Part shown: piece after piece, positions 3,680-20,000 of the stretch | Layout: each line of letters begins with the position of its first letter | How positions within the stretch are numbered: position 1 is the stretch's first letter | Source: an uncultured virus (IMG/VR IMGVR_UViG_3300043411_002804) | Taxonomy: Duplodnaviria > Heunggongvirae > Uroviricota > Caudoviricetes | Reading direction: 5' to 3' (one strand) | Virus record (IMG/VR): IMGVR_UViG_3300043411_002804 | DNA length: 20,000 nucleotides | Notes under the pieces: generated by a model | What the model was told of the DNA's origin: nothing | The model's input: only the letters and a program-made list of their open reading frames with translations | Database searches by the model: none | Program-made: the position numbers and the translations under genes

Positions 3680-3730
3680 AATATATCTCTTTATCTTTTT
3701 TTAGCAATACCTGAATTAAAATTTTACATT
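3680..3730 (-). promoter_or_regulatory. conserved phage promoter motif, copy 2
   Basis: + strand atatatctctttatctttttttagcaatacctgaattaaaattttacatt matches the consensus. Confidence 0.75.
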
Positions 3731-3800: not shown

Positions 3801-4985
3801 TCAGTCCCCCGCATTTTGCTGATCAAAAAATGATGATTCCTCATATTCTTTTCTAAAGTTTTCAATCGCCTTAATTCCAAGACCAAGAACTTTGGAGCCA
3901 ATCAATTTCTCAACCTCTCCATTTCCATAAAGATATTCTATACCTACCTGGAATAGATAAGAATCATTTTCGGAAAGCTTCTTCATCTCAAGAACAGCCT
4001 CCTTTCGAGAGAGATTTGCAAACCCCTCCCTTTTAATGATTTCTAGAAACTGATTAACTTGCTCCCTTACGAACTTAAGACGTTCTATATACGAATTGAA
4101 CATAGGCTCAAGAAATGAGCATACCTCAAAGTCTAATCCAATTAGAAACAAACTTTCCTTCAATTGATCAAAGGTTTCAATATTCTTCATCCAACAAAAT
4201 TGAGTGAAACGTTCCTCCGTCATCTGATACTTAAAAGTATGAATTCTGATATATTCCGCTGCCTTAATCTTGCAAGGGAGAATTGTTCCGTTCGGAAGAT
4301 AAGACCATACAACAATGCCTTCTGCGCTCTTCCAATTGCGGATCTTCTCAACGATATCCTTTAACGACCCATTTAAATCGTAAAACTTAACTGCTGGAGT
4401 TCCATAAGTCTCCTCCAAAGACTTTACAGTCTCTGGAGATGAAACAAACTCAGGCGGATCAGCTGAAAGATCCATTAGACCCAAAACTGTCAGAGTAGAC
4501 TCATCATACTTGACAACAATTTGATTCTCAGGACCAGTATACTCAAACAAAACTGAGTATCGTGTATCCAATGATGGATCCAACAATCGAGGATATCTTG
4601 TCTGCACAAGATTCATAATGTTTGTATCAAACGGATACCCCAAATTATGAGAACCCCTTGTACGAAAATGTACCTGACCATTAATTACAGAACGAATCAA
4701 CAACGATCCATCCATCTTTTCTGAGAAAATAGATGTTCCGTTTCGAATAGATTCTTCGGTAAGAATATCTAAATCAGGACATTCACCATAATTATGGAAT
4801 TTCATCAGAGATGCAGAAATAACATGCCCTGATGCATCCAAAAGCAAACTCCGAAGATGTCGATCTTCGGAAGACCACTTATGCTTCGTGAAAGTGGGGC
4901 CGATCAACCAAACCTTTTCACCATTCAAGATCCTTGACTGAACTTGAAAATCATCCTTGTTGATTGTATCAACATCAATGTACAT
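3801..4985 (-). CDS. rnlA: RNA ligase, T4 Rnl1 (RnlA) family
   Basis: KFHNYGE (KFFN-like), motif I EKMDGSL (KxDG), FRTRGS, motif III VLFEY, NQIVVKY, motif IV EGIVV, motif V KIK; start placed at ATG 4985 after AAAGGA. Confidence 0.9.
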   Translation of the reverse strand: MYIDVDTINKDDFQVQSRILNGEKVWLIGPTFTKHKWSSEDRHLRSLLLDASGHVISASLMKFHNYGECPDLDILTEESIRNGTSIFSEKMDGSLLIRSVINGQVHFRTRGSHNLGYPFDTNIMNLVQTRYPRLLDPSLDTRYSVLFEYTGPENQIVVKYDESTLTVLGLMDLSADPPEFVSSPETVKSLEETYGTPAVKFYDLNGSLKDIVEKIRNWKSAEGIVVWSYLPNGTILPCKIKAAEYIRIHTFKYQMTEERFTQFCWMKNIETFDQLKESLFLIGLDFEVCSFLEPMFNSYIERLKFVREQVNQFLEIIKREGFANLSRKEAVLEMKKLSENDSYLFQVGIEYLYGNGEVEKLIGSKVLGLGIKAIENFRKEYEESSFFDQQNAGD

Positions 4986-4998
4986 TTTGAATCCTTTT

Positions 4999-5181
4999 TT
5001 AATCTTTGATACACTCGCAGACTGTACCGTAATTTGTGCTGTTACTATACCCTTGCACAGCACAAGTATTTTGACACGTTATTTCAACAGTTTTGCTAAC
5101 TACGGCACCAAGTAAAGAAAGCGTAAAGATTACTGCGGCTACCAACATAAAAATGTTTATCAATAGATTTTCATTGTCCAT
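4999..5181 (-). CDS. small membrane-anchored Cys-containing protein
   Basis: N-terminal hydrophobic helix followed by CxxxC and CxC; GGAG RBS. Confidence 0.65.
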   Translation of the reverse strand: MDNENLLINIFMLVAAVIFTLSLLGAVVSKTVEITCQNTCAVQGYSNSTNYGTVCECIKD

Positions 5182-5189
5182 TCTTTATC

Positions 5190-5240
5190 TCCATATCATT
5201 TTATGTTTTTTTAGCTAAACCAAAAATAAAACTTTATATC
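5190..5240 (-). promoter_or_regulatory. conserved phage promoter motif, copy 3 (degenerate)
   Basis: TAGCTA-A6-CATAAAATGA-TATGGA; same 16-nt spacing, diverged upstream block. Confidence 0.5.
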
Positions 5241-5391: not shown

Positions 5392-5781
5392 TTATATTTT
5401 ATCCCCTCGTCTAATTTTTTCAGATAATGCTAACGCATAAGATTTTAAATCTCGAAGAGGATTCTGGACCTTTTTGGATAATGCCAACGCATAAAAACTT
5501 AAATTTTGAAGAGGATTCTGGCTAATCACAAGTTGTTGTGACCATAAACTCCATGCTGTAATTCGTAAACTCTTTTCGCCTTCTTTATGATTAAAAACAT
5601 TGCCTGGTGTTAATCCTTCTTCAAGAGACCAATCAATAATTTTTTTACAAGTTTCAGAGTCAAGCAATAACATGTGACCAACATTTTGGGCCAAATAAAT
5701 GCATGCATAACCATCTGCGGAAAAGGCCCTGTAAGTTGCATTACTATTACATAGCTCAACTTCAAAAATTGAATTCGGCAC
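5392..5781 (-). CDS. hypothetical protein with an 18-aa C-terminal tandem duplication
   Basis: GTG start abutting the upstream stop; QNPLQNLSFYALALSKKV / QNPLRDLKSYALALSEKI. Confidence 0.65.
   Translation of the reverse strand: MPNSIFEVELCNSNATYRAFSADGYACIYLAQNVGHMLLLDSETCKKIIDWSLEEGLTPGNVFNHKEGEKSLRITAWSLWSQQLVISQNPLQNLSFYALALSKKVQNPLRDLKSYALALSEKIRRGDKI
5423..5521. repeat. 54-bp-period imperfect tandem duplication
   Basis: gataatgc.aacgcataa...gaagaggattctgg at 5423-5467 and 5477-5521. Confidence 0.85.
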
Positions 5782-6360
5782 TTATGACTCTTCTTTAAAT
5801 GAGGCAATAGTTGTATTGCCAAAATTCGTCAAAGCAAGACATGGTTTATTTGGATCAAGGTACTCTTGACATTCAGTCAAACCCCATAGGTAGGATAAAG
5901 CTTTCTTATAGATAGAAATATCTGTAATATATCTATTTAAATCTGAATCTACATGTTGTAGGATCATAAACGGGGCATCATCCATCCATACCGTAAACAT
6001 GTCATTGTGAATCATTTTAATCGAAATGCTTGAATCTTCTGGAAGAGAATGTAATGTTGTAATCTCAGGAAATAGGCTACTAAGTTCGTGCCAGTTATAA
6101 ACTGGATCTTCCCTGAGGGTGGGAACCTTATAAAGATCACTCGCACAATAAATTGTTAGTGGTTCTGCTCGCTTTACGATCGAATTGCCATCAAACATGT
6201 GGGTAATGAAATCAAATGTTTTGATTTCAATATTTTCGAACACTTTTTCGTACCTCTTTTTTATATTTTCTATTGCATCTAAAGATGCACTTGTAGTAAG
6301 AATCATGCTTTCTTGATTGTTAAAACGAGTTCCTGTGTAATAGAGTGCATAAAAAGTCAT
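5782..6360 (-). CDS. hypothetical protein
   Basis: 192-aa ORF with GGAGA RBS. Confidence 0.75.
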   Translation of the reverse strand: MTFYALYYTGTRFNNQESMILTTSASLDAIENIKKRYEKVFENIEIKTFDFITHMFDGNSIVKRAEPLTIYCASDLYKVPTLREDPVYNWHELSSLFPEITTLHSLPEDSSISIKMIHNDMFTVWMDDAPFMILQHVDSDLNRYITDISIYKKALSYLWGLTECQEYLDPNKPCLALTNFGNTTIASFKEES

Positions 6361-6371
6361 TACTTATCTCC

Positions 6372-6563
6372 CTATTCCGTAAAACAATAGTAAATTTGAG
6401 ACAATACTCTTTCAGTATCAAATTTTGATTCCGGATCATTATCCTCATAATAATGAATCCGACATTTAAATTCGTTAGCTAACCTTTTACGCTCATTCGA
6501 AATAGCGTCATTAACCGCATTTTCAATCATTTTGGATATGGTATAATAATCTTCATCTGTCAT
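6372..6563 (-). CDS. small hypothetical protein
   Basis: ATG 6563 after AAGGTG. Confidence 0.65.
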   Translation of the reverse strand: MTDEDYYTISKMIENAVNDAISNERKRLANEFKCRIHYYEDNDPESKFDTERVLSQIYYCFTE

Positions 6564-6578
6564 AATGATCACCTTGTG

Positions 6579-6728
6579 CTAAAGAATGTTTTTAGGCCCA
6601 ACCTCAAAAATTGAGGCCCACCAATGAGTGATATATACACTCATTTCCTTTTTATGAAGATTATGTTCTTCTGCATAATCCATGTCAATCCAACACATCA
6701 AAGGTAAATCACAAAATGGATTATCCAT
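6579..6728 (-). CDS. 49-aa hypothetical protein (not in the ORF track)
   Basis: AGGAG RBS; MDNPFCDLPLMCWIDMDYAEEHNLHKKEMSVYITHWWASIFEVGPKNIL* fills the gap between neighbours. Confidence 0.55.
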   Translation of the reverse strand: MDNPFCDLPLMCWIDMDYAEEHNLHKKEMSVYITHWWASIFEVGPKNIL

Positions 6729-6747
6729 CTCAAACTCCTATGTTTTA

Positions 6748-6981
6748 CTAATCTGGGCAAAAAATCTCGTAAGGTTGAAGATTATGTTCTGACCACAACC
6801 ATGCAATTTCATAATGCTCTCTCATTCCGCTCTTATCAGAAATGAGAGACTTGCGCCATAAAAGCCATACATCCATCTCTTTACACAAGTGGTCATTAAT
6901 TCCACCACGAAACATTCCCTGAAAAATTTGATTTCGACAAAATGACTTAATTGACCAAACGTTGTTCTGATAAACAATCAT
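6748..6981 (-). CDS. hypothetical protein
   Basis: Start moved to ATG 6981 (MIVYQNN); the longer ORF call overlaps tRNA-Asn. Confidence 0.55.
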   Translation of the reverse strand: MIVYQNNVWSIKSFCRNQIFQGMFRGGINDHLCKEMDVWLLWRKSLISDKSGMREHYEIAWLWSEHNLQPYEIFCPD

Positions 6982-7032
6982 ATGTAACCTACCCATCAAC
7001 AATGTTTGTTTTTTTATTAAGGAATGTATAAA

Positions 7033-7104
7033 CGAGCCCACCTGGATTTGAACCAGGAAAAACAGATTAACAGTCTGTCGTGATACCAATTTCACCATGA
7101 GCTC
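7033..7104 (-). tRNA. tRNA-Asn(GTT)
   Basis: Acceptor GAGCTCA/TGGGCTC, anticodon arm ACAGA-CTGTTAA-TCTGT, T arm CCTGG-TTCAAAT-CCAGG, discriminator G; CCA not encoded. Confidence 0.93.
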
Positions 7105-7161
7105 TAAACATTAGATGTAGGGATTAAACCTACCAAACCTAATGTGATTCGGTTCCTTTAA

Positions 7162-7302
7162 GGGCCCCGTTGAAGCTGTTCTTCACTTAATTGTTCAAAC
7201 CATTCCTCTTGACCCACATCCCGGTCAGTCGACCGGGCCCCGTTGAAGCTTGGGAATAATAAACTCCATTAAGATACCATTCTTTTTCCCACATCCCGGT
7301 CA
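7162..7302 (+). CRISPR. CRISPR mini-array: two spacers, one full and two half repeats, no cas genes in window
   Basis: Full repeat 7213-7249 CCCACATCCCGGTCAGTCGACCGGGCCCCGTTGAAGC (37 bp; 7-bp stem CCCGGTC/GACCGGG, 4-nt loop). Exact last 15 nt at 7162-7176 and exact first 15 nt at 7288-7302. Spacers of 36 bp (7177-7212) and 38 bp (7250-7287). Orientation inferred from the TTGAAGC end. Confidence 0.85.
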
Positions 7303-7460
7303 ACTTACTACTTACTTAGTTCAACGTGTTTTTATGCGGGGGTTTTAAGGCGGAAGTTAACACTCTCACGAATTTTCCCGCCTAATTCCTACCGCTTACT
7401 TCCCCGGTAGGTGGGTTGATTTGATACATCTTGCATTACTCCTTTGCCATCTTACACCTA

Positions 7461-7510
7461 ACTATATCTCAGTATTTTTTTTTAGCAAATCCTGAATTAA
7501 GATTTTATAT
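7461..7510 (-). promoter_or_regulatory. conserved phage promoter motif, copy 4
   Basis: TTGCTA-A8-TACTGAGA-TATAGT; points toward the mini-array and tRNA-Asn. Confidence 0.8.
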
Positions 7511-7518
7511 CCTACCTT

Positions 7519-7827
7519 TTAGGAAGGCTTCAAATATGGATCCAATAAATACAGCTCATGTGGGGCTAATCGATGAGGATCTCTCCACTTAAATAGTGGT
7601 GCAACATCATCTTTGTTTAAGAGAAAAAAATTGATAGCATGATCATAAGCTTCGTATCTGTGTTTAGCCCTACCTATAAATGTTTTATAATCAGTATTAT
7701 TACATCTGATAAAAACCTGATACAGGAAAAGACCATATTCAGTATCATCTCCATAATGACCCCAATATTTACCTGAACGATCATATCCTTTTTTGTTAAG
7801 TTTAATTCTTTTTGATGTTGAATACAA
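7519..7827 (-). CDS. hypothetical protein
   Basis: 102-aa ORF with TTG start abutting the upstream stop. Confidence 0.6.
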   Translation of the reverse strand: MYSTSKRIKLNKKGYDRSGKYWGHYGDDTEYGLFLYQVFIRCNNTDYKTFIGRAKHRYEAYDHAINFFLLNKDDVAPLFKWRDPHRLAPHELYLLDPYLKPS

Positions 7828-8184
7828 TTAAGCCTTACCTTTATGGTTTGAGTTACCTGCATTTTCACCAATTTTTTTGAATTTCATACCAGACATAGAA
7901 GTCAAATGTGTCCCCAACTGACAACTTTTGCCTTTATTTTGACCAGAGTTATTTCTCCAAGCATTGGCATACTTTTCCCTACTCTTTTGGTCTTCAAAAG
8001 CTAAAAGCGTAATGCTAGCCATTTTGCCATCGCCTGAAGCAACACCCAAGTATTTAGGTGGAGATTGATCTCCACCTAATTCTTCAAGACAGTCCGGGCA
8101 TTCATTAATAAGTCCACCGGCCAATTTCTTTTGGCGGCTAAACAAATTGAATTCTGACTCACACCATTTACAAACTTTGATCAT
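7828..8184 (-). CDS. Zn-ribbon-containing hypothetical protein
   Basis: CKWC and CPDC pairs in the N-terminus. Confidence 0.7.
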   Translation of the reverse strand: MIKVCKWCESEFNLFSRQKKLAGGLINECPDCLEELGGDQSPPKYLGVASGDGKMASITLLAFEDQKSREKYANAWRNNSGQNKGKSCQLGTHLTSMSGMKFKKIGENAGNSNHKGKA

Positions 8185-8193
8185 TGGAAAACC

Positions 8194-8859
8194 TTAAATA
8201 CAGATAAGTTGAATAGTTTTCGCACTATTCACAAAAGTAATATTCATTTCTTGTTTAACTTGCCCACCACAATGATGAACGTGACCAAAGAAATGATGTG
8301 TTATTCTATGATTTTGGTAAGTCATAGCACTAGTTTGATTTGCTACCCCACAATGCTCCCCACAAGATTCGGCATCCAAGATGCCTGCTGGTGGTGCATG
8401 AGTAACAAGGATTGTAGGATCTGCATCCATTGCCTTCTGGACAATTAATGAGAAATCATGAGATTCTCCTGGCCATTCGCCTGCAATAAATGGAATTTCC
8501 CTATATCCCGAAAATCTTTGCTCTGCAAAGTCTACCGGACCCAAACTCAAATCAAAAGAAGAAGCGCAATATTTGGCTTCAACAAGCTTTTGATGCAAAG
8601 AAATAAAATCATGGTTTCCTGCAATCCAAATTACAGGCTTGCCTTTTAATTTATCCATAATAGATTGAGATTTATAAGACCACCATCTTTCCTGAAAAAG
8701 ACGCTCGTAAACTGGATCAATCTTACCCTGCGTCTTTGTTCCTCTACCATAATTTGGAAAGAAATCTCCTGTAATGAGCCATAGATCAAAATCTAAATCA
8801 CCAACCTTGGTAAGCTTTTTGTAAGAACCATGAAGATCGCTTGCATGAGCAATAATCAT
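8194..8859 (-). CDS. calcineurin-like metallophosphoesterase
   Basis: All five motifs present: SDLHG, ITGDF, AGNHD, VTHAPP, FGHVH; AAGGAGG RBS. Confidence 0.92.
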   Translation of the reverse strand: MIIAHASDLHGSYKKLTKVGDLDFDLWLITGDFFPNYGRGTKTQGKIDPVYERLFQERWWSYKSQSIMDKLKGKPVIWIAGNHDFISLHQKLVEAKYCASSFDLSLGPVDFAEQRFSGYREIPFIAGEWPGESHDFSLIVQKAMDADPTILVTHAPPAGILDAESCGEHCGVANQTSAMTYQNHRITHHFFGHVHHCGGQVKQEMNITFVNSAKTIQLICI

Positions 8860-8880
8860 TATTATACCTCCTTACCAATT

Positions 8881-9153
8881 CTACTCTAGAAATTCATAAC
8901 TGCCATAAAAATCAATGGAGAAATCTCCAAACAAATAGATTCTGATTTTTCCATCAATCATATCATACCAATCCACATGATGTTCAATTACCTTACATTT
9001 GATTGCAACATCACATTTATTATGTCTACATAAAATTGGAGATACATCAATAATTTCTACTGTATCCCATAACGATTTGTACTTTTCACCAACTTTCACT
9101 TGGTGAGTAGTTGTGTCATCAATCACATGTTCGATTTCTTGCTCATACCACAT
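8881..9153 (-). CDS. hypothetical protein
   Basis: 90-aa ORF with GAGG RBS. Confidence 0.7.
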   Translation of the reverse strand: MWYEQEIEHVIDDTTTHQVKVGEKYKSLWDTVEIIDVSPILCRHNKCDVAIKCKVIEHHVDWYDMIDGKIRIYLFGDFSIDFYGSYEFLE

Positions 9154-9487: not shown

Positions 9488-9537
9488 GACATAACTCATT
9501 ATCTTTTTTTAGCAAAACCTGAATTAAAATTTTATAC
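9488..9537 (-). promoter_or_regulatory. conserved phage promoter motif, copy 5
   Basis: TTGCTA-A6-GATAATGAGT-TATGTC with upstream TATAAAATTTTAATTCAGG. Confidence 0.75.
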
Positions 9538-11699: not shown

Positions 11700-11724
11700 A
11701 ACAACTCCATTCAATTTAATTTAA

Positions 11725-11795
11725 TGGGCATGGTGGAAATCGAACCCACACGTTAAAAAACATCCAAATTTGAGTCGGACCTGGCTACCACGCCC
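11725..11795 (-). tRNA. tRNA-Leu(CAA)-like gene lacking the D arm (pseudo-tRNA or atypical tRNA)
   Basis: Acceptor GGGCGTG/CATGCCC plus A, anticodon arm TCCGA-CTCAAAT-TTGGA, long variable arm GTT-TTTT-AAC, T arm GTGGG-TTCGATT-TCCAC; only GTAGCCAGG between acceptor and anticodon stems. Confidence 0.7.
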
Positions 11796-11917
11796 TTGAA
11801 TGATCATCCACGCACACATACACAAATATTTTTAAATATATCTCAATGCAGGAGTTTTTCCTCTTAAAATCTACGCTTCGCTTCGTAACATTATCTACGT
11901 TACTCAATTTAATAGAA

Positions 11918-12308: not shown

Positions 12309-12357
12309 ACTATATCCAAATATCTTTTTTTAGCAAAACTTGAATTATTATTTTACA
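12309..12357 (-). promoter_or_regulatory. conserved phage promoter motif, copy 6
   Basis: TTGCTA-N16-TATAGT with upstream TGTAAAATAATAATTCAAG. Confidence 0.8.
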
Positions 12358-12366
12358 ACTGACTTA

Positions 12367-12561
12367 TTAATAAGCTCTTTTTAAGTCTCCTAAATTTGAA
12401 TGAATATGGCCACACTTAATCTCATGGCATTCAAGTTCTTCTTCCTCCATATAATTATACTCGTCACACATAAGTTCTCGAGCCTGAGATTCCGTTTCTG
12501 CGATCACAACAATACATCCTCGCCAAGAATGATCCTGAATCCAAACCTTAAGATTTTCCAT
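12367..12561 (-). CDS. small hypothetical phage protein
   Basis: 64 aa with GGAG RBS; VVIAETESQAREL pattern is common in small phage proteins. Confidence 0.7.
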   Translation of the reverse strand: MENLKVWIQDHSWRGCIVVIAETESQARELMCDEYNYMEEEELECHEIKCGHIHSNLGDLKRAY

Positions 12562-12604
12562 GTAATTTCTCCAATTCTATAATGTTAACTCTCATTGACT
12601 CCTC

Positions 12605-12654
12605 GTCATAACCCAACATATTTTTTTAGCAAACCCTGAATTAAAATTTTATAT
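12605..12654 (-). promoter_or_regulatory. conserved phage promoter motif, copy 7
   Basis: + strand cataacccaacatatttttttagcaaaccctgaattaaaattttatat. Confidence 0.75.
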
Positions 12655-12743
12655 CCAAGGCCGGCGCGCCGGGTCTAAAATCCATCACCCCGACCCGCGC
12701 GGAGCAAATTCCGATCTAAATTTTAGACCTATAAGCAGTGGGG

Positions 12744-12773
12744 GGGGGCGATCGAATTGACGCCCCCATTTTT
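12744..12773. terminator. GC-rich hairpin, possible terminator
   Basis: GGGGGCG-N10-CGCCCCC right at the end of the 12772 ORF; T-tract on the + strand side. Confidence 0.45.
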
Positions 12774-13158
12774 AGTATCCGACCCGCAATCCTCGGCAAC
12801 CAGTAATATTCCCTTCCGTATCCCGAATCGCATCGCCAGGCGATGCGAGATCAAATGGAGTACGTTCCTCAGGTCTTGACTCCCTCCAAGAAGCACCATA
12901 TTGGCGGTAGGACTGGTATCGAGTCATGACTGCATCCAAAACCATCCCTGATACAATTAGTGTCACTCCATCAACCGGATCAGGCAAATTGATGGGATAT
13001 CCAAACATTGTTACTACGCAAGGCACACCCTCACGTTCCGGAGCTGGAAAACTTGCTGCCGCAACACGTACGGGACACTGAGTGTTTGCAGGAATTTCCA
13101 AAAATGTACCGTCGGAACGCTGAATATTTAGCTTATGAGGCATTAAGTTGATCAACAT
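12772..13158 (-). CDS. NL(T/M)PH-motif protein, possible Crn4-like ring nuclease
   Basis: Start moved to MLINLMPH (13158 or 13164); motifs INLMPH, VRV, LPDPVDGVTLIVS, DLASPG, IRDTEGNITGCRGL. The CDS is solid; the function is recalled and unverified. Confidence 0.45.
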   Translation of the reverse strand: MLINLMPHKLNIQRSDGTFLEIPANTQCPVRVAAASFPAPEREGVPCVVTMFGYPINLPDPVDGVTLIVSGMVLDAVMTRYQSYRQYGASWRESRPEERTPFDLASPGDAIRDTEGNITGCRGLRVGY

Positions 13159-13189
13159 GATCATATCCCATTTGTTTTTGTTTTTTTGG

Positions 13190-13495
13190 TTAGAAAGACT
13201 TATGGAGATTATTCCAATAAGTCTCGTTATCCGAAAGCCAACGATCTTCATCATCCATGAAATAAGACTCAGCATATGCCTGAATGATTTCCTCCTCATC
13301 ATCCTCATCTGGATCAAAACAACCATCACATCCACATCGAATATAAACATCCTTATTGTGTTCGGGATTGATTGTGTAAATTCCACAGTTGCGACATACC
13401 CAAACAGCATATTCACCATTTGGAGCCTGACGCACCGCAGCACGAATTTCGCTATCAGACATATCAGAGTGAATCTTAGCCGTGACAATGCTCAT
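13190..13495 (-). CDS. Cys-rich, probably Zn-binding protein with acidic tail
   Basis: CRNC and CGCDGC; GGGGG RBS-like run upstream. Confidence 0.7.
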   Translation of the reverse strand: MSIVTAKIHSDMSDSEIRAAVRQAPNGEYAVWVCRNCGIYTINPEHNKDVYIRCGCDGCFDPDEDDEEEIIQAYAESYFMDDEDRWLSDNETYWNNLHKSF

Positions 13496-14875: not shown

Positions 14876-14926
14876 AATTATAACTATTTATCTTTTTTTA
14901 GCAAAACCTAAATGTTTATTTTATAT
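14876..14926 (-). promoter_or_regulatory. conserved phage promoter motif, copy 8
   Basis: TTGCTA-A6-GATAAATAGT-TATAAT (perfect -10). Confidence 0.85.
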
Positions 14927-14975: not shown

Positions 14976-15677
14976 TTACGGGTTAGAACATAAATCGTAA
15001 TCTAATAAGTGATTTCGAAAATCCTTCACTCCATCAAAGCCAAAAATAGGCATCGGCAATAAAGGATTCTGCGTATTGTTATCATCAGATATCATAATCG
15101 GGGTATAACTTATACGAACAAATGTTCGCTTTGTATTTGCCACCAATTTCGGACGACGGTGAATTACATAAGGATCCATACAATAAACCGTCTTCGGCTC
15201 CAAGATTTTTGGCTGACCCGAAATTCGACGTTGAATGAAAAGATGAACGTTATGAACCATCGGATCAAAATCGGTCGGAAAAATCATCGGTATCTCAGCG
15301 CATTCCGTCGGAGTATGATCTACCCAAATATAATTCTGTTCAGGTAAATGAGTAATCTTAGTGGAAAATCCATCAACATGCCACAAATCATCACTCTCTG
15401 ACGCTACCAAACCATGTCGCACAGTAATGTAAAGATAAGGATGTCGAACACCAATCACGTGTTCTTGGTTAAAACTAGATACCTCAATCATTTTGCGGAC
15501 CCATTCCAATTCCAAAGGAAGTCGCAATTCGTGATATGGCTGCTTAACCAACATCCGAAGAATGTACTGTCTGAAATCTGGCGGGGTTAAATCCAAAGGA
15601 GCGATTTTCTCAGGATGTGAATTCTGCTGAAAATGCTCCAAAGAAAGAATCTGCTTGGATCGATTCCTAATTGACAT
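14976..15677 (-). CDS. putative 2OG-Fe(II) dioxygenase-like protein
   Basis: LWHVDG (HxD), then VIHRRP (H), then KRTFVRIS (R); same motif order as 9974-10462. Confidence 0.62.
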   Translation of the reverse strand: MSIRNRSKQILSLEHFQQNSHPEKIAPLDLTPPDFRQYILRMLVKQPYHELRLPLELEWVRKMIEVSSFNQEHVIGVRHPYLYITVRHGLVASESDDLWHVDGFSTKITHLPEQNYIWVDHTPTECAEIPMIFPTDFDPMVHNVHLFIQRRISGQPKILEPKTVYCMDPYVIHRRPKLVANTKRTFVRISYTPIMISDDNNTQNPLLPMPIFGFDGVKDFRNHLLDYDLCSNP

Positions 15678-16570: not shown

Positions 16571-16620
16571 ATCATATCTAGATATCTTTTTTTAGCAAAG
16601 CCTAAATGTTTATTTTATAT
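16571..16620 (-). promoter_or_regulatory. conserved phage promoter motif, copy 9
   Basis: TTGCTA-A6-GATATCTAGA-TATGAT; upstream block nearly identical to copy 8. Confidence 0.8.
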
Positions 16621-18456: not shown

Positions 18457-18506
18457 TGATATAACTCAATATTTTTTTTTAGCAAACCCCGAATTAAAAT
18501 TTTTCA
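18457..18506 (-). promoter_or_regulatory. conserved phage promoter motif, copy 10
   Basis: TTGCTA-A8-TATTGAGT-TATATC with upstream AAAATTTTAATTCGGGG. Confidence 0.75.
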
Positions 18507-18553
18507 CATACGATTAGCAGCCAGCCTCTCATTTTGTTAGAGGTTAAGAAGAC

Positions 18554-18817
18554 TTAGGATCTACGCTTTGAGAGATTACTCTCAACTGTAGCACATCCAT
18601 TTCCATAACCATCTCCATCTCCAAATCCATATCCATATCCATATCCAGATCCTTCTCCAGATCCAGATCCATATCCTTCTCCAGATCCATCTCCATAACC
18701 ATCTCCATCTCCAAATCCAGATCCATAACCATCTCCATCTCCAAATCCAGATCCAAATCCATATCCATTTCCATTTCCCACAGGCATTTTTTCCATGTTA
18801 AACCTCTCAATTTCCAT
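18554..18817 (-). CDS. (Gly-X)n repeat protein, cassette 1
   Basis: Leader (MEIERFN)MEKMPVG, G-X core, tail ATVESNLSKRRS; alternative ATG at 18796. Confidence 0.65.
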   Translation of the reverse strand: MEIERFNMEKMPVGNGNGYGFGSGFGDGDGYGSGFGDGDGYGDGSGEGYGSGSGEGSGYGYGYGFGDGDGYGNGCATVESNLSKRRS

Positions 18818-18828
18818 GTTAATCTCCC

Positions 18829-19191
18829 TTAGGATCTACGCTTTGAGAGATTACTCTCAACTGTAGCACGTCCATATCCAGATCCATATCCATATTCATA
18901 TCCTTCTCCAGATCCAAATCCATATCCATCTCCATATCCATATCCATATCCATATCCATATCCATATCCATATCCATTTCCATATCCATATCCAGATCCA
19001 TCTCCATATCCATCTCCATTTCCATTTCCAAATCCAAATCCATTTCCATACCCATCTCCATTTCCAGATCCATATCCATTTCCAGATCCATACCCATCTC
19101 CATTTCCAGATCCAAATCCATCTCCATATCCCACAGGCATTTTTTCCATGTTAAACCTCTCATTTTCCATGTTAAACCTCTCATTTTCCAT
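18829..19191 (-). CDS. (Gly-X)n repeat protein, cassette 2
   Basis: Same leader and tail; in-frame ATGs at 19191, 19170 and 19149 from a duplicated 21-bp unit. Confidence 0.65.
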   Translation of the reverse strand: MENERFNMENERFNMEKMPVGYGDGFGSGNGDGYGSGNGYGSGNGDGYGNGFGFGNGNGDGYGDGSGYGYGNGYGYGYGYGYGYGYGDGYGFGSGEGYEYGYGSGYGRATVESNLSKRRS

Positions 19192-19202
19192 GTTAATGAC
19201 CC

Positions 19203-19712
19203 TTAGGATCTACGCTTTGAGAGATTACTCTCAACTGTAGCAGATCCCTTTCCATATCCCTTTCCAGATCCCTTTCCATATCCAAATCCAGATCCATTTC
19301 CATATCCATATCCATTTCCATTTCCATATCCATATCCAAATCCATATCCATATCCAGATCCATATCCATATCCATATCCATATCCATATCCATATCCATT
19401 TCCATATCCATATCCATTTCCATTTCCATATCCATATCCAAATCCATATCCATATCCAGATCCATATCCATATCCATATCCATATCCATATCCATATCCA
19501 TATCCATTTCCATATCCATATCCATTTCCATTTCCATATCCATATCCAAATCCATATCCATATCCAGATCCATATCCATATCCATATCCATATCCATATC
19601 CATATCCATTTCCATATCCATATCCATCTCCATTTCCATATCCCTCTCCATTTCCATATTCAGAACCATATCCCACAGGCATTTTTTCCATGTTAAACCT
19701 CTCATTTTCCAT
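19203..19712 (-). CDS. (Gly-X)n repeat protein, cassette 3 (longest, Gly-Tyr rich)
   Basis: Same leader and tail; ATGs at 19712 and 19691; core has a threefold higher-order repeat. Confidence 0.65.
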   Translation of the reverse strand: MENERFNMEKMPVGYGSEYGNGEGYGNGDGYGYGNGYGYGYGYGYGYGSGYGYGFGYGYGNGNGYGYGNGYGYGYGYGYGYGYGSGYGYGFGYGYGNGNGYGYGNGYGYGYGYGYGYGSGYGYGFGYGYGNGNGYGYGNGSGFGYGKGSGKGYGKGSATVESNLSKRRS

Positions 19713-19723
19713 GTTAATCACCC

Positions 19724-19984
19724 TTAGGATCTACGCTTTGAGAGATTACTCTCAACTGTAGCAAATCCATATCCAGATCCAAATCCATTTCCATATCCAT
19801 CTCCATCTCCAAATCCATATCCATATCCATATCCATTTCCATATCCAGATCCATATCCAGATCCATATCCATATCCATTTCCATTTCCATTTCCAGATCC
19901 AAATCCATATCCATATCCATTTCCATTTCCATAGCCATCTCCATATCCAGATCCATATCCATTTCCCACAGGCATTTTTTCCAT
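19724..19984 (-). CDS. (Gly-X)n repeat protein, cassette 4
   Basis: GAGG RBS before MEKMPVG at 19984; same tail. Confidence 0.65.
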   Translation of the reverse strand: MEKMPVGNGYGSGYGDGYGNGNGYGYGFGSGNGNGNGYGYGSGYGSGYGNGYGYGYGFGDGDGYGNGFGSGYGFATVESNLSKRRS

Positions 19985-20000
19985 GTTAAACCTCATTTTT

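Follow-up and report, generated by a model that had tools for sequence, protein, structure and literature searches.

An array fragment with a single whole repeat

Positions 7162 to 7302 of a 20,000-nucleotide (nt) stretch of DNA from an uncultured Caudoviricetes virus (IMG/VR record IMGVR_UViG_3300043411_002804; the entire stretch is referred to below as the window) hold a fragment of a CRISPR array of subtype I-G, the least studied of the type I subtypes. Read on the plus strand, the fragment starts with a 15-nt 3' repeat stub (7162-7176), which comprises the last 3 nt of the 3' arm of the repeat hairpin, a 4-nt linker and an 8-nt handle. It is followed by a 36-nt spacer with 33% GC (spacer 1, 7177-7212), a whole 37-nt repeat (7213-7249), a 38-nt spacer with 26% GC (spacer 2, 7250-7287) and a 15-nt 5' repeat stub (7288-7302), made up of the 7-nt flank, the 5' arm and the first base of the loop. 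The original prediction for this locus had described precisely this succession of half repeat, spacer, repeat, spacer and half repeat, and its description is exact.

The whole repeat divides on the plus strand into segments of 7, 7, 4, 7, 4 and 8 nt: a flank, the two arms of a 7-bp stem around a 4-nt loop, the linker and the handle. In the predicted fold, the 7-bp stem and its 4-nt loop are followed by a 12-nt 3' tail. The stem sequence is the same on both strands, and both strands fold into the same 7-bp stem, so that the hairpin bound by Csb2, the protein that cuts I-G repeats, is predicted to be present in either transcript. Both stubs are exact copies of parts of the repeat, with 7162-7177 equal to 7235-7250 over 16 nt and 7288-7302 equal to 7213-7227 over 15 nt (100% identity in each case); repeat similarity does not continue past 7302, and neither stub folds into a replacement hairpin. 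Allowing for up to 3 mismatches, the 37-mer occurs once in the window, with no copy expected (200 shuffles).

In a functional array, at least two whole repeats would flank each spacer; this locus has one whole repeat and 15-nt stubs in place of the outer copies. A search of 6500-8000 against Rfam, with E values up to 10, returned neither CRISPR-DR nor any other family besides tRNA, and RNA folds of the whole region were uninformative (z of -1.4 and -2.0). What lifts the fragment above chance is that its repeat exactly matches a cas-linked array elsewhere. The proposal of a cas-less, CRISPR-derived mini-array in a phage-like genome is upheld: the fragment is genuine.

The repeat is that of a type I-G system in a Myxococcota genome

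When the 22-nt 3' part of the repeat was searched against one genome per prokaryote species, a single locus matched, at the start of a 21.9-kb contig (C52) of a Myxococcota metagenome-assembled genome (MAG; G001). This contig contains 16 repeats that are identical to the phage repeat over 37 of 37 nt, along with one further copy with 2 mismatches, and the spacers of its main array are 34-40 nt long, a range that includes both phage spacers. It encodes cas3g (4e-229), csb2 (2e-82), csb1/cas7g (8e-20) and a Cas3-extension gene (2e-96); csx17/cas8g and cas1 are found on other contigs of the same MAG. GC content is 71% for the contig versus 37% for the window. Among 154 genomes of the MAG's order, G001 itself is the only one with the repeat. 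Neither the repeat nor the array pattern nor shorter versions of them matched anything in a viral contig collection, and the repeat also found no match in a metagenome contig collection.

The anatomy of the repeat points to the same subtype. According to bioRxiv 10.1101/2022.08.08.503147, Csb2 cuts 4 nt 3' of the 7-bp stem, leaving an 8-nt 5' handle, and remains on the 3' hairpin, with the handle not being held by a Cas5; the protospacer adjacent motif (PAM) of I-G systems is given there as TTN. The window repeat fits this published cleavage rule on the plus strand only. In a wider sample of the phylum, Csb2 was present in 65 of 301 genomes; 20 loci downstream of csb2 were taken, 10 of them had arrays, and all 10 arrays have 35-37-nt repeats whose 3' end reads TTGAAGC in sense orientation, as does that of the phage repeat. 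Both the Csb2 rule and the TTGAAGC end fit the plus strand of the window, which is therefore the CRISPR sense strand. The original prediction had likened the repeat to those of type I-G and some of type III and had named similarity to a cas-linked repeat as a check; contig C52 of G001 supplies such a repeat, and the guess of type I-G is confirmed by full-length repeat identity beside cas3g, csb1 and csb2, by the cleavage rule and by the shared 3' end.

Repeat stubs occur in natural I-G arrays

About 130 bp past the 3' end of the Cas3-extension gene, the MAG contig carries a small array (L002:5700-5835) with the same layout as the phage fragment: between a 14-nt 3' stub and a 14-nt 5' stub, spacers of 35 and 36 nt flank a whole repeat that has 2 mismatches. 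It lies roughly 4.5 kb from the main array, and its spacers and flanks are unrelated to those of the phage fragment. A similarity between one of its spacers and spacer 5 of the main array was discarded, being no better than that of the best random pair (score 13 versus 13). The stretch from the main to the small array (L002, 1205-5699) encodes a 738-residue AAA ATPase and a 484-residue protein with a metallo-beta-lactamase (MBL) fold and contains a fragment of an IS21 transposase; the 484-residue protein is weakly similar to the anti-phage enzyme 6A-MBL (2e-07, below the cut-off), and it may be that a defence cassette has entered the array here.

Similar stubs are seen at the ends of longer arrays and inside them. 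The main array of C52 ends in a 17-nt 5' stub and the array at L073 in a clean 16-nt 5' stub, cut within the hairpin loop, while the terminal repeats at L064, L070, L074 and L060 retain the 5' part without the handle. At L060, 3' stubs of 13-17 nt, their first base lying within the 3' arm, are also present both inside and beside the natural array. On its reverse strand, the regions 12480-12680 and 15008-15098 show internal 5' and 3' stubs, a 22-nt mini-spacer and small repeat deletions, and a second worn two-repeat unit is located about 1.8 kb beyond the trailer end.

Judging from these sequences, such stubs are ordinary wear and deletion scars of I-G arrays, with breaks clustering in the hairpin, and we infer that the centre of the palindrome is a hot spot for breakage and deletion. 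The phage fragment looks like a piece freed by two such breaks, or else like the trailer end of an array. Since stubs are natural in I-G arrays, the trimming of the phage copy need not reflect design. The earlier suggestion, by which trimming would leave each spacer with exactly the repeat parts it requires, is not supported and accords poorly with I-G biology on two further counts: the left stub has no hairpin, so that the spacer 1 handle cannot be released by Csb2, and spacer 2 is without a 3' hairpin of the kind that Csb2 holds in I-G complexes.

The spacers match neighbouring parts of a gene common in the same samples

We aligned contigs of four DNA metagenome runs (X1 to X4) to positions 6600-7800 of the window; such contigs carry no record of RNA ends or strands, and for X3 and X4 the parts of the window that are not covered carry no information. 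Both spacers match far more sequence than their surroundings do: in X1, spacer 1 has a summed depth of 1235 and spacer 2 one of 210, over a phage baseline of 30, and a similar excess is found in X2 to X4. Positions 7179-7212 of spacer 1 match other contigs in all four runs. In these contigs, positions 7254-7285 of spacer 2 directly follow 7212, and joints that lead from 7212 to 7254 or to 7263-7266 recur in all four runs, that is, the spacer sequences are contiguous there, with no repeat in between. The consensus letters of loose ends tell the same story, being spacer-2-like right behind 7212 and spacer-1-like right before 7249. In the target, the first 4 nt of spacer 2 overlap the last 4 nt of spacer 1 (3 of 4 alike). 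Contigs that match both spacers differ from the window in their flanks on both sides, so they represent another genomic context and not variants of the fragment.

Contigs matching both spacers are AT-rich and coding in each of the four runs. On the minus strand, one open frame runs through 7254-7285 and on through 7179-7212, and the flanking consensus letters extend it (by hand reading). As both spacer sequences thus adjoin each other within an open reading frame (ORF), the spacers copy abutting parts, with a 4-nt overlap, of one protein-coding, phage-like gene that is common in these samples. A joint in X4 that goes back by 34 hints at internal repeats in this gene. At the targets of spacer 1, the letters in front give a TTA PAM, which fits the TTN reported for I-G (bioRxiv 10.1101/2022.08.08.503147). 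The original prediction had named protospacer matches as a check on the fragment, and both spacers do match sequence in other contigs of every run.

Outside these runs the spacers find little. Neither they nor the host's spacers (those of the small array and 16 of the main array) have a match beyond chance in the window or on contig C52 (best 24 of 38), blastn against GenBank phages gave only hits with E of at least 1, and searches of the IMG/VR and JGI collections with the core of spacer 1 and with a wobble-tolerant pattern across both spacers gave no match; the phage group and the target gene are absent from the IMG/VR and JGI collections searched. A spacer match in the GIY-YIG homing endonuclease gene of Aeromonas phage phiAS4 was discarded, as only a few residues are in common and the match is attributable to chance.

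The metagenomes also bear on where the fragment and its repeat are found. X3 and X4 contain repeat-spacer-repeat contigs with the phage repeat and GC-rich spacers of 37 nt, which implies that bacteria carrying such arrays live alongside the phage-like sequences. Leaving the possible source run aside, contigs from two further studies carry the fragment without change, with 0 differences over 7183-7393 in X2 (groundwater) and over 6902-7210 and 7248-7415 in X3 (freshwater). X1, X2 and X3 share a flank variant in which 37 nt between 7415 and 7453 are replaced by 118 other letters, with the fragment again unchanged. Some related contigs in the same three runs skip the segment 7138-7422, which contains the fragment (joint from 7137 to 7423; weak, its shorter side being 28 letters); going by this joint, there may be relatives, or paralogous promoter-tRNA units, without the fragment.

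The flanking phage promoter is antisense to the fragment

A conserved phage promoter of sigma-70 type (TTGCTA, 16 nt, TATAGT) is located at 7461-7510 on the minus strand, where the promoter scan found a copy at 7488-7461. It belongs to a 47-nt motif that occurs 10 times in the window, at 1153-1199, 3683-3729, 5193-5239, 7464-7510, 9491-9537, 12312-12358, 12608-12654, 14880-14926, 16574-16620 and 18461-18507, always in the one orientation that reads on the minus strand. On that strand, the motif consists of an AT-rich upstream part, TTGCTA, 16 nt and a TAT-type -10 element, and those copies that were checked (3683, 9491 and 14880) sit just upstream of the start of a minus-strand ORF. The motif matches many contigs in the metagenome runs (summed depth 831 in X1) and has no match in public contig collections. 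Downstream of the fragment on the minus strand follows a gene for tRNA-Asn(gtt) at 7033-7104 (65.9 bits). The original prediction had placed the fragment between a phage promoter and tRNA-Asn; the position is right, and the promoter is antisense to the CRISPR sense strand.

On the plus strand, the only upstream candidate is a weak sigma-70-like site at 6951-6978 (9 of 12 positions) in a region with 2 such sites versus 3.8 expected. A terminator-like hairpin lies downstream of the fragment at 7392-7414, 1 being found versus 0.8 expected, which is not significant alone. We also viewed the flanks of I-G arrays at L055, L056, L060, L061, L064, L066, L071 and L074 for a shared leader motif: by eye, and uncounted, a GCTCG-type motif stands at a similar distance upstream of most arrays viewed.

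The window resembles the early region of a large phage

The carrier is AT-rich (37% GC) and has nearly all of its ORFs on the minus strand. That it is a virus is supported by this one-strand gene order, the repeated promoter motif, two tRNAs, Asn(gtt) and Leu(caa), an RNA ligase of the T4 Rnl1 type (3801-5063, minus strand; PHROG 562, 3e-30) and matches of further ORFs to several PHROG families of unknown function. A metallophosphoesterase gene, recognised through Pfam and PHROGs, lies at 8194-8859 on the minus strand. There are no structural phage genes in the 20 kb, and the window has the look of an early region from a large uncultured phage. None of 50,697 GenBank phage records is a close relative (megablast of 6000-9000), and the RNA ligase has at most 26% identity to known phage ligases, with one further weak locus. 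Cas genes are likewise missing, as the original prediction had stated, with PADLOC giving no Cas match for any of the 46 window ORFs, and Pfam and PHROGs giving none for the 19 largest. The small ORFs next to the fragment have no family above threshold, and no acr genes were recognised nearby.

tRNA-Asn(gtt) and tRNA-Leu(caa) read codons that a bacterium with 71% GC would be expected to use rarely, and this argues mildly for such a host. The RNA ligase (3801-5063) and the metallophosphoesterase (8194-8859) lie near the two phage tRNAs, and together they read like what we take to be a tRNA repair set against host anticodon nucleases.

Several other features of the window, all apart from the fragment, deserve mention. 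On the minus strand, 18554-19996 holds four tandem paralogous small genes for glycine- and tyrosine-rich low-complexity proteins that have an N-terminus and a C-terminal tail in common; each paralogue has a long shadow ORF in another frame, with no family match. The stretch 11711-11800 (minus) is 73% similar to the 3' half of tRNA-Leu and includes T-arm-like sequence; it is called by neither ARAGORN nor Rfam and may be a decayed second tRNA. For a 238-residue protein encoded at 12772-13488 (minus), PADLOC gives a match to its model 'Unk_01, unknown small protein sometimes fused to CARF' (6.5e-16); the protein may interact with defence signalling by cyclic nucleotides. Finally, two tandem 51-nt copies with a 54-nt period and 84% identity (5417-5521) lie inside ORF 5392-5781 and give rise to a repeated peptide near the C-terminus.

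A proposed guide against rival phages, or a scar of capture

What might a phage gain from such a fragment? The reading that we favour, tentatively and at rather less than even confidence, is that a captured piece of I-G array gives the host's Cascade a guide, mainly spacer 1, against rival phages. The fragment, 141 bp without leader or cas genes, would have been cut from an array of a bacterium with this repeat, most likely the phage's own host; the sole carrier of the repeat found so far is the Myxococcota MAG. The breaks would have fallen inside the repeat hairpin, and the right stub is perhaps a natural worn terminal repeat. Host Csb2 would cleave a plus-strand transcript a single time, 4 nt behind the whole repeat's hairpin. 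Spacer 1 would then have a handle sequence in front and a Csb2-bound hairpin behind, with a TTA PAM at its targets, and its RNA could be loaded into Cascade and direct Cas3 at rival phages that carry the target gene. Spacer 2 is probably idle or weak, because there is no hairpin behind it and no canonical PAM at its target. This proposed use as a guide is modelled on other virus-borne mini-arrays.

A number of observations weigh against this proposal. Its weak point is the strand of transcription, as it needs the plus strand to be read: all 10 convincing promoter copies are on the minus strand, with the one at 7461-7510 running through the fragment in antisense towards tRNA-Asn and no minus-strand terminator predicted in between, and the plus-strand candidates for promoter and terminator are both at chance level. 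An array would be expected to have a leader with a promoter before its first repeat, which the phage fragment lacks; the GCTCG motif was not seen, by eye, in 7105-7161, upstream of the left stub. With that stub devoid of a hairpin, the 5' end of a CRISPR RNA (crRNA) with spacer 1 cannot be generated by Csb2. The targets are imperfect too. Compared with the contig consensus, there are PAM-proximal mismatches at position 2 of spacer 1 and position 4 of spacer 2, and the target of spacer 2 has CTC in place of a PAM, or TTG only if it is slipped by 3 nt. The joints behind the contiguity of the two spacer sequences rest on short sides (21-31 letters), a less reliable class. As to the host, none of the 18 spacers of the MAG matches the window, and 37% versus 71% GC is unusual for a phage and its host.

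One alternative takes the fragment to be an inert passenger, acquired through illegitimate recombination, now carried along in the 5' leader of the tRNA-Asn transcript, transcribed in antisense only and discarded after RNase P has cleaved the tRNA. The predicted pattern of transcription sits well with such a passenger, from the shared strand of promoter and tRNA-Asn with no terminator predicted between them to the want of a leader or a credible plus-strand promoter, and so do the stubs, which resemble the scars that decay or breakage commonly leaves in I-G arrays. The absence of any mismatch from the 67 repeat-derived bases fits a recent capture, and as all copies found are identical, there is no evolutionary depth that could reveal selection. 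However, a random piece of array should carry GC-rich spacers. The spacers on the MAG contig are GC-rich in 18 of 18 cases, at 62-81%, and so are both of those in the X3 and X4 arrays, whereas the phage has two AT-rich ones that match phage-like sequence. Random capture of two such spacers is unlikely, and it seems that spacer content matters. Moreover, the fragment persists unchanged in two studies besides its possible source, and in two flank variants. We regard a mere passenger as somewhat doubtful, if a serious contender.

Under a second alternative, the fragment is a decoy like the RNA anti-CRISPRs (Racrs), with the hairpin of the whole repeat tying up host Csb2, and perhaps Cas7g, in dead-end complexes and so lowering I-G immunity. 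Csb2 is reported to bind the repeat hairpin tightly (43-55 nM) and to stay on it (bioRxiv 10.1101/2022.08.08.503147), and Racrs, which are solitary phage repeats, are described for almost all CRISPR types (PMC10651486). A decoy would not even depend on the plus strand, for the same 7-bp stem is present on both, so that the antisense leader RNA driven by the strong early-type promoter could serve too. Yet the antisense strand has a different loop and different flanks, and each transcript would offer one hairpin only. Two full-length, phage-matching spacers have been kept that a decoy does not need, and the gene context is not acr-like, neighbouring ORFs being without a family above threshold. 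On balance, a decoy strikes us as unlikely.

A third alternative would turn the antisense setting into the function itself. RNA from the early promoter, complementary to spacer 1, repeat and spacer 2, could pair with host pre-crRNA or crRNAs in which the same two spacers are present, and with repeats generally, such that Csb2 processing is blocked or the duplex is exposed to RNase III and host memory against this phage group is erased. Such an antisense anti-CRISPR would be in the orientation of the sole strong promoter, and matches of the spacers to phage-like contigs in the same samples are what one would expect if hosts hold these spacers. The right stub also resembles a natural trailer end (L073 and the main array of G001), and the trailer end is the place of spacers common to a whole host population. 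Against this, no host array with either spacer was found (0 of 18 in G001, and neither of the two array spacers in X3 and X4), mutation of the seed or PAM would be a cheaper escape, and no such mechanism surfaced in the titles and abstracts of 10 of the 19 papers that one literature search brought up. We consider this reading quite improbable.

Least probable by far is a regulatory crRNA-like RNA (of the Cracr or CreR kind) whose spacer would pair in part with a cas or toxin promoter for Cascade to repress: phage crRNA-like RNAs that silence cas, including two- and three-spacer arrays, are described (bioRxiv 10.1101/2024.10.29.618823; bioRxiv 10.1101/2023.03.03.530964) and the host MAG has its small array of the same layout beside the Cas3-extension gene, but on the 21.9-kb host contig with the cas genes neither spacer finds a PAM-proximal match in 11 or more of 12 counted positions, the two host small-array spacers share nothing with the phage spacers, the match to phage-like contigs is near full length and not confined to a seed, and the spacers are AT-rich in the face of a host with 71% GC.

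The repeat ties a phage with 37% GC to a host with 71% GC, a link that host prediction from composition would miss. The fragment raises the questions of whether a single whole repeat is enough to load one guide and whether the transcribed strand is relevant. That the spacers stem from abutting segments, and that the fragment is set in antisense, could be signs of a new counter-defence acting at the RNA level; if the antisense reading is true, this would be an RNA anti-CRISPR that erases specific immune memories. Even as a mere scar of capture, the fragment documents palindromic repeats breaking and moving between host and phage.

Comparison with known systems

The fragment shares with the Myxococcota I-G arrays (contig C52 of G001 and the 10 further loci) the repeat or its signature, that is, 36-37 nt with a hairpin, 4 nt and the TTGAAGC handle, as well as the range of spacer lengths and the kind of stub. 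It differs from them in having no cas genes, one whole repeat, AT-rich spacers, a phage context and no leader motif that we could see.

Short regulatory arrays and solitary repeats offer another parallel. Like the Cracr and CreR/CreA mini-arrays described in bioRxiv 10.1101/2024.10.29.618823 and bioRxiv 10.1101/2023.03.03.530964, the fragment is a short array with worn outer repeats in a phage, and, as with CreR/CreA, there is a small array beside the host cas genes; unlike a Cracr, it has no seed match on the host cas contig and has full-length spacers that match phage-like contigs. The Cracr studies list types V-A, I-F, I-E, I-C and I-B, not I-G. Racrs, as portrayed in PMC10651486, resemble the fragment in having a single host-type repeat hairpin, no cas genes and a place in a small early-type gene region, but they have no real spacers and stand just downstream of a sense promoter, whereas the phage fragment has two full-length spacers and an antisense promoter.

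Virus-borne mini-arrays provide the model for the use that we propose. In the account of a review (PMC11656645), these have 1-2 spacers and host-identical repeats, and their spacers mostly target related viruses. The phage fragment is like the cas-less examples covered there (the Sulfolobales viruses SPV1 and SPV2, and many phages) in its one to two spacers, its host-identical repeat, the absence of cas genes nearby and spacers that match virus-like sequences of the same habitat. It departs from them in being of type I-G, in having a single whole repeat with 15-nt stubs for outer repeats, in lacking a recognisable leader or sense promoter while lying antisense to a phage promoter, and in drawing its spacers from abutting parts of a gene. 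The term 'I-G' does not occur in PMC10651486, PMC11656645 or bioRxiv 10.1101/2023.03.03.530964. Cas-less viral mini-arrays as such are already known, and a type I-G example is new relative to the papers searched. Beyond the subtype, the case connects a phage rich in AT with a host rich in GC, and it adds a layout of one repeat and two stubs that is explained by array wear, two spacers from abutting segments of a gene and an antisense setting.

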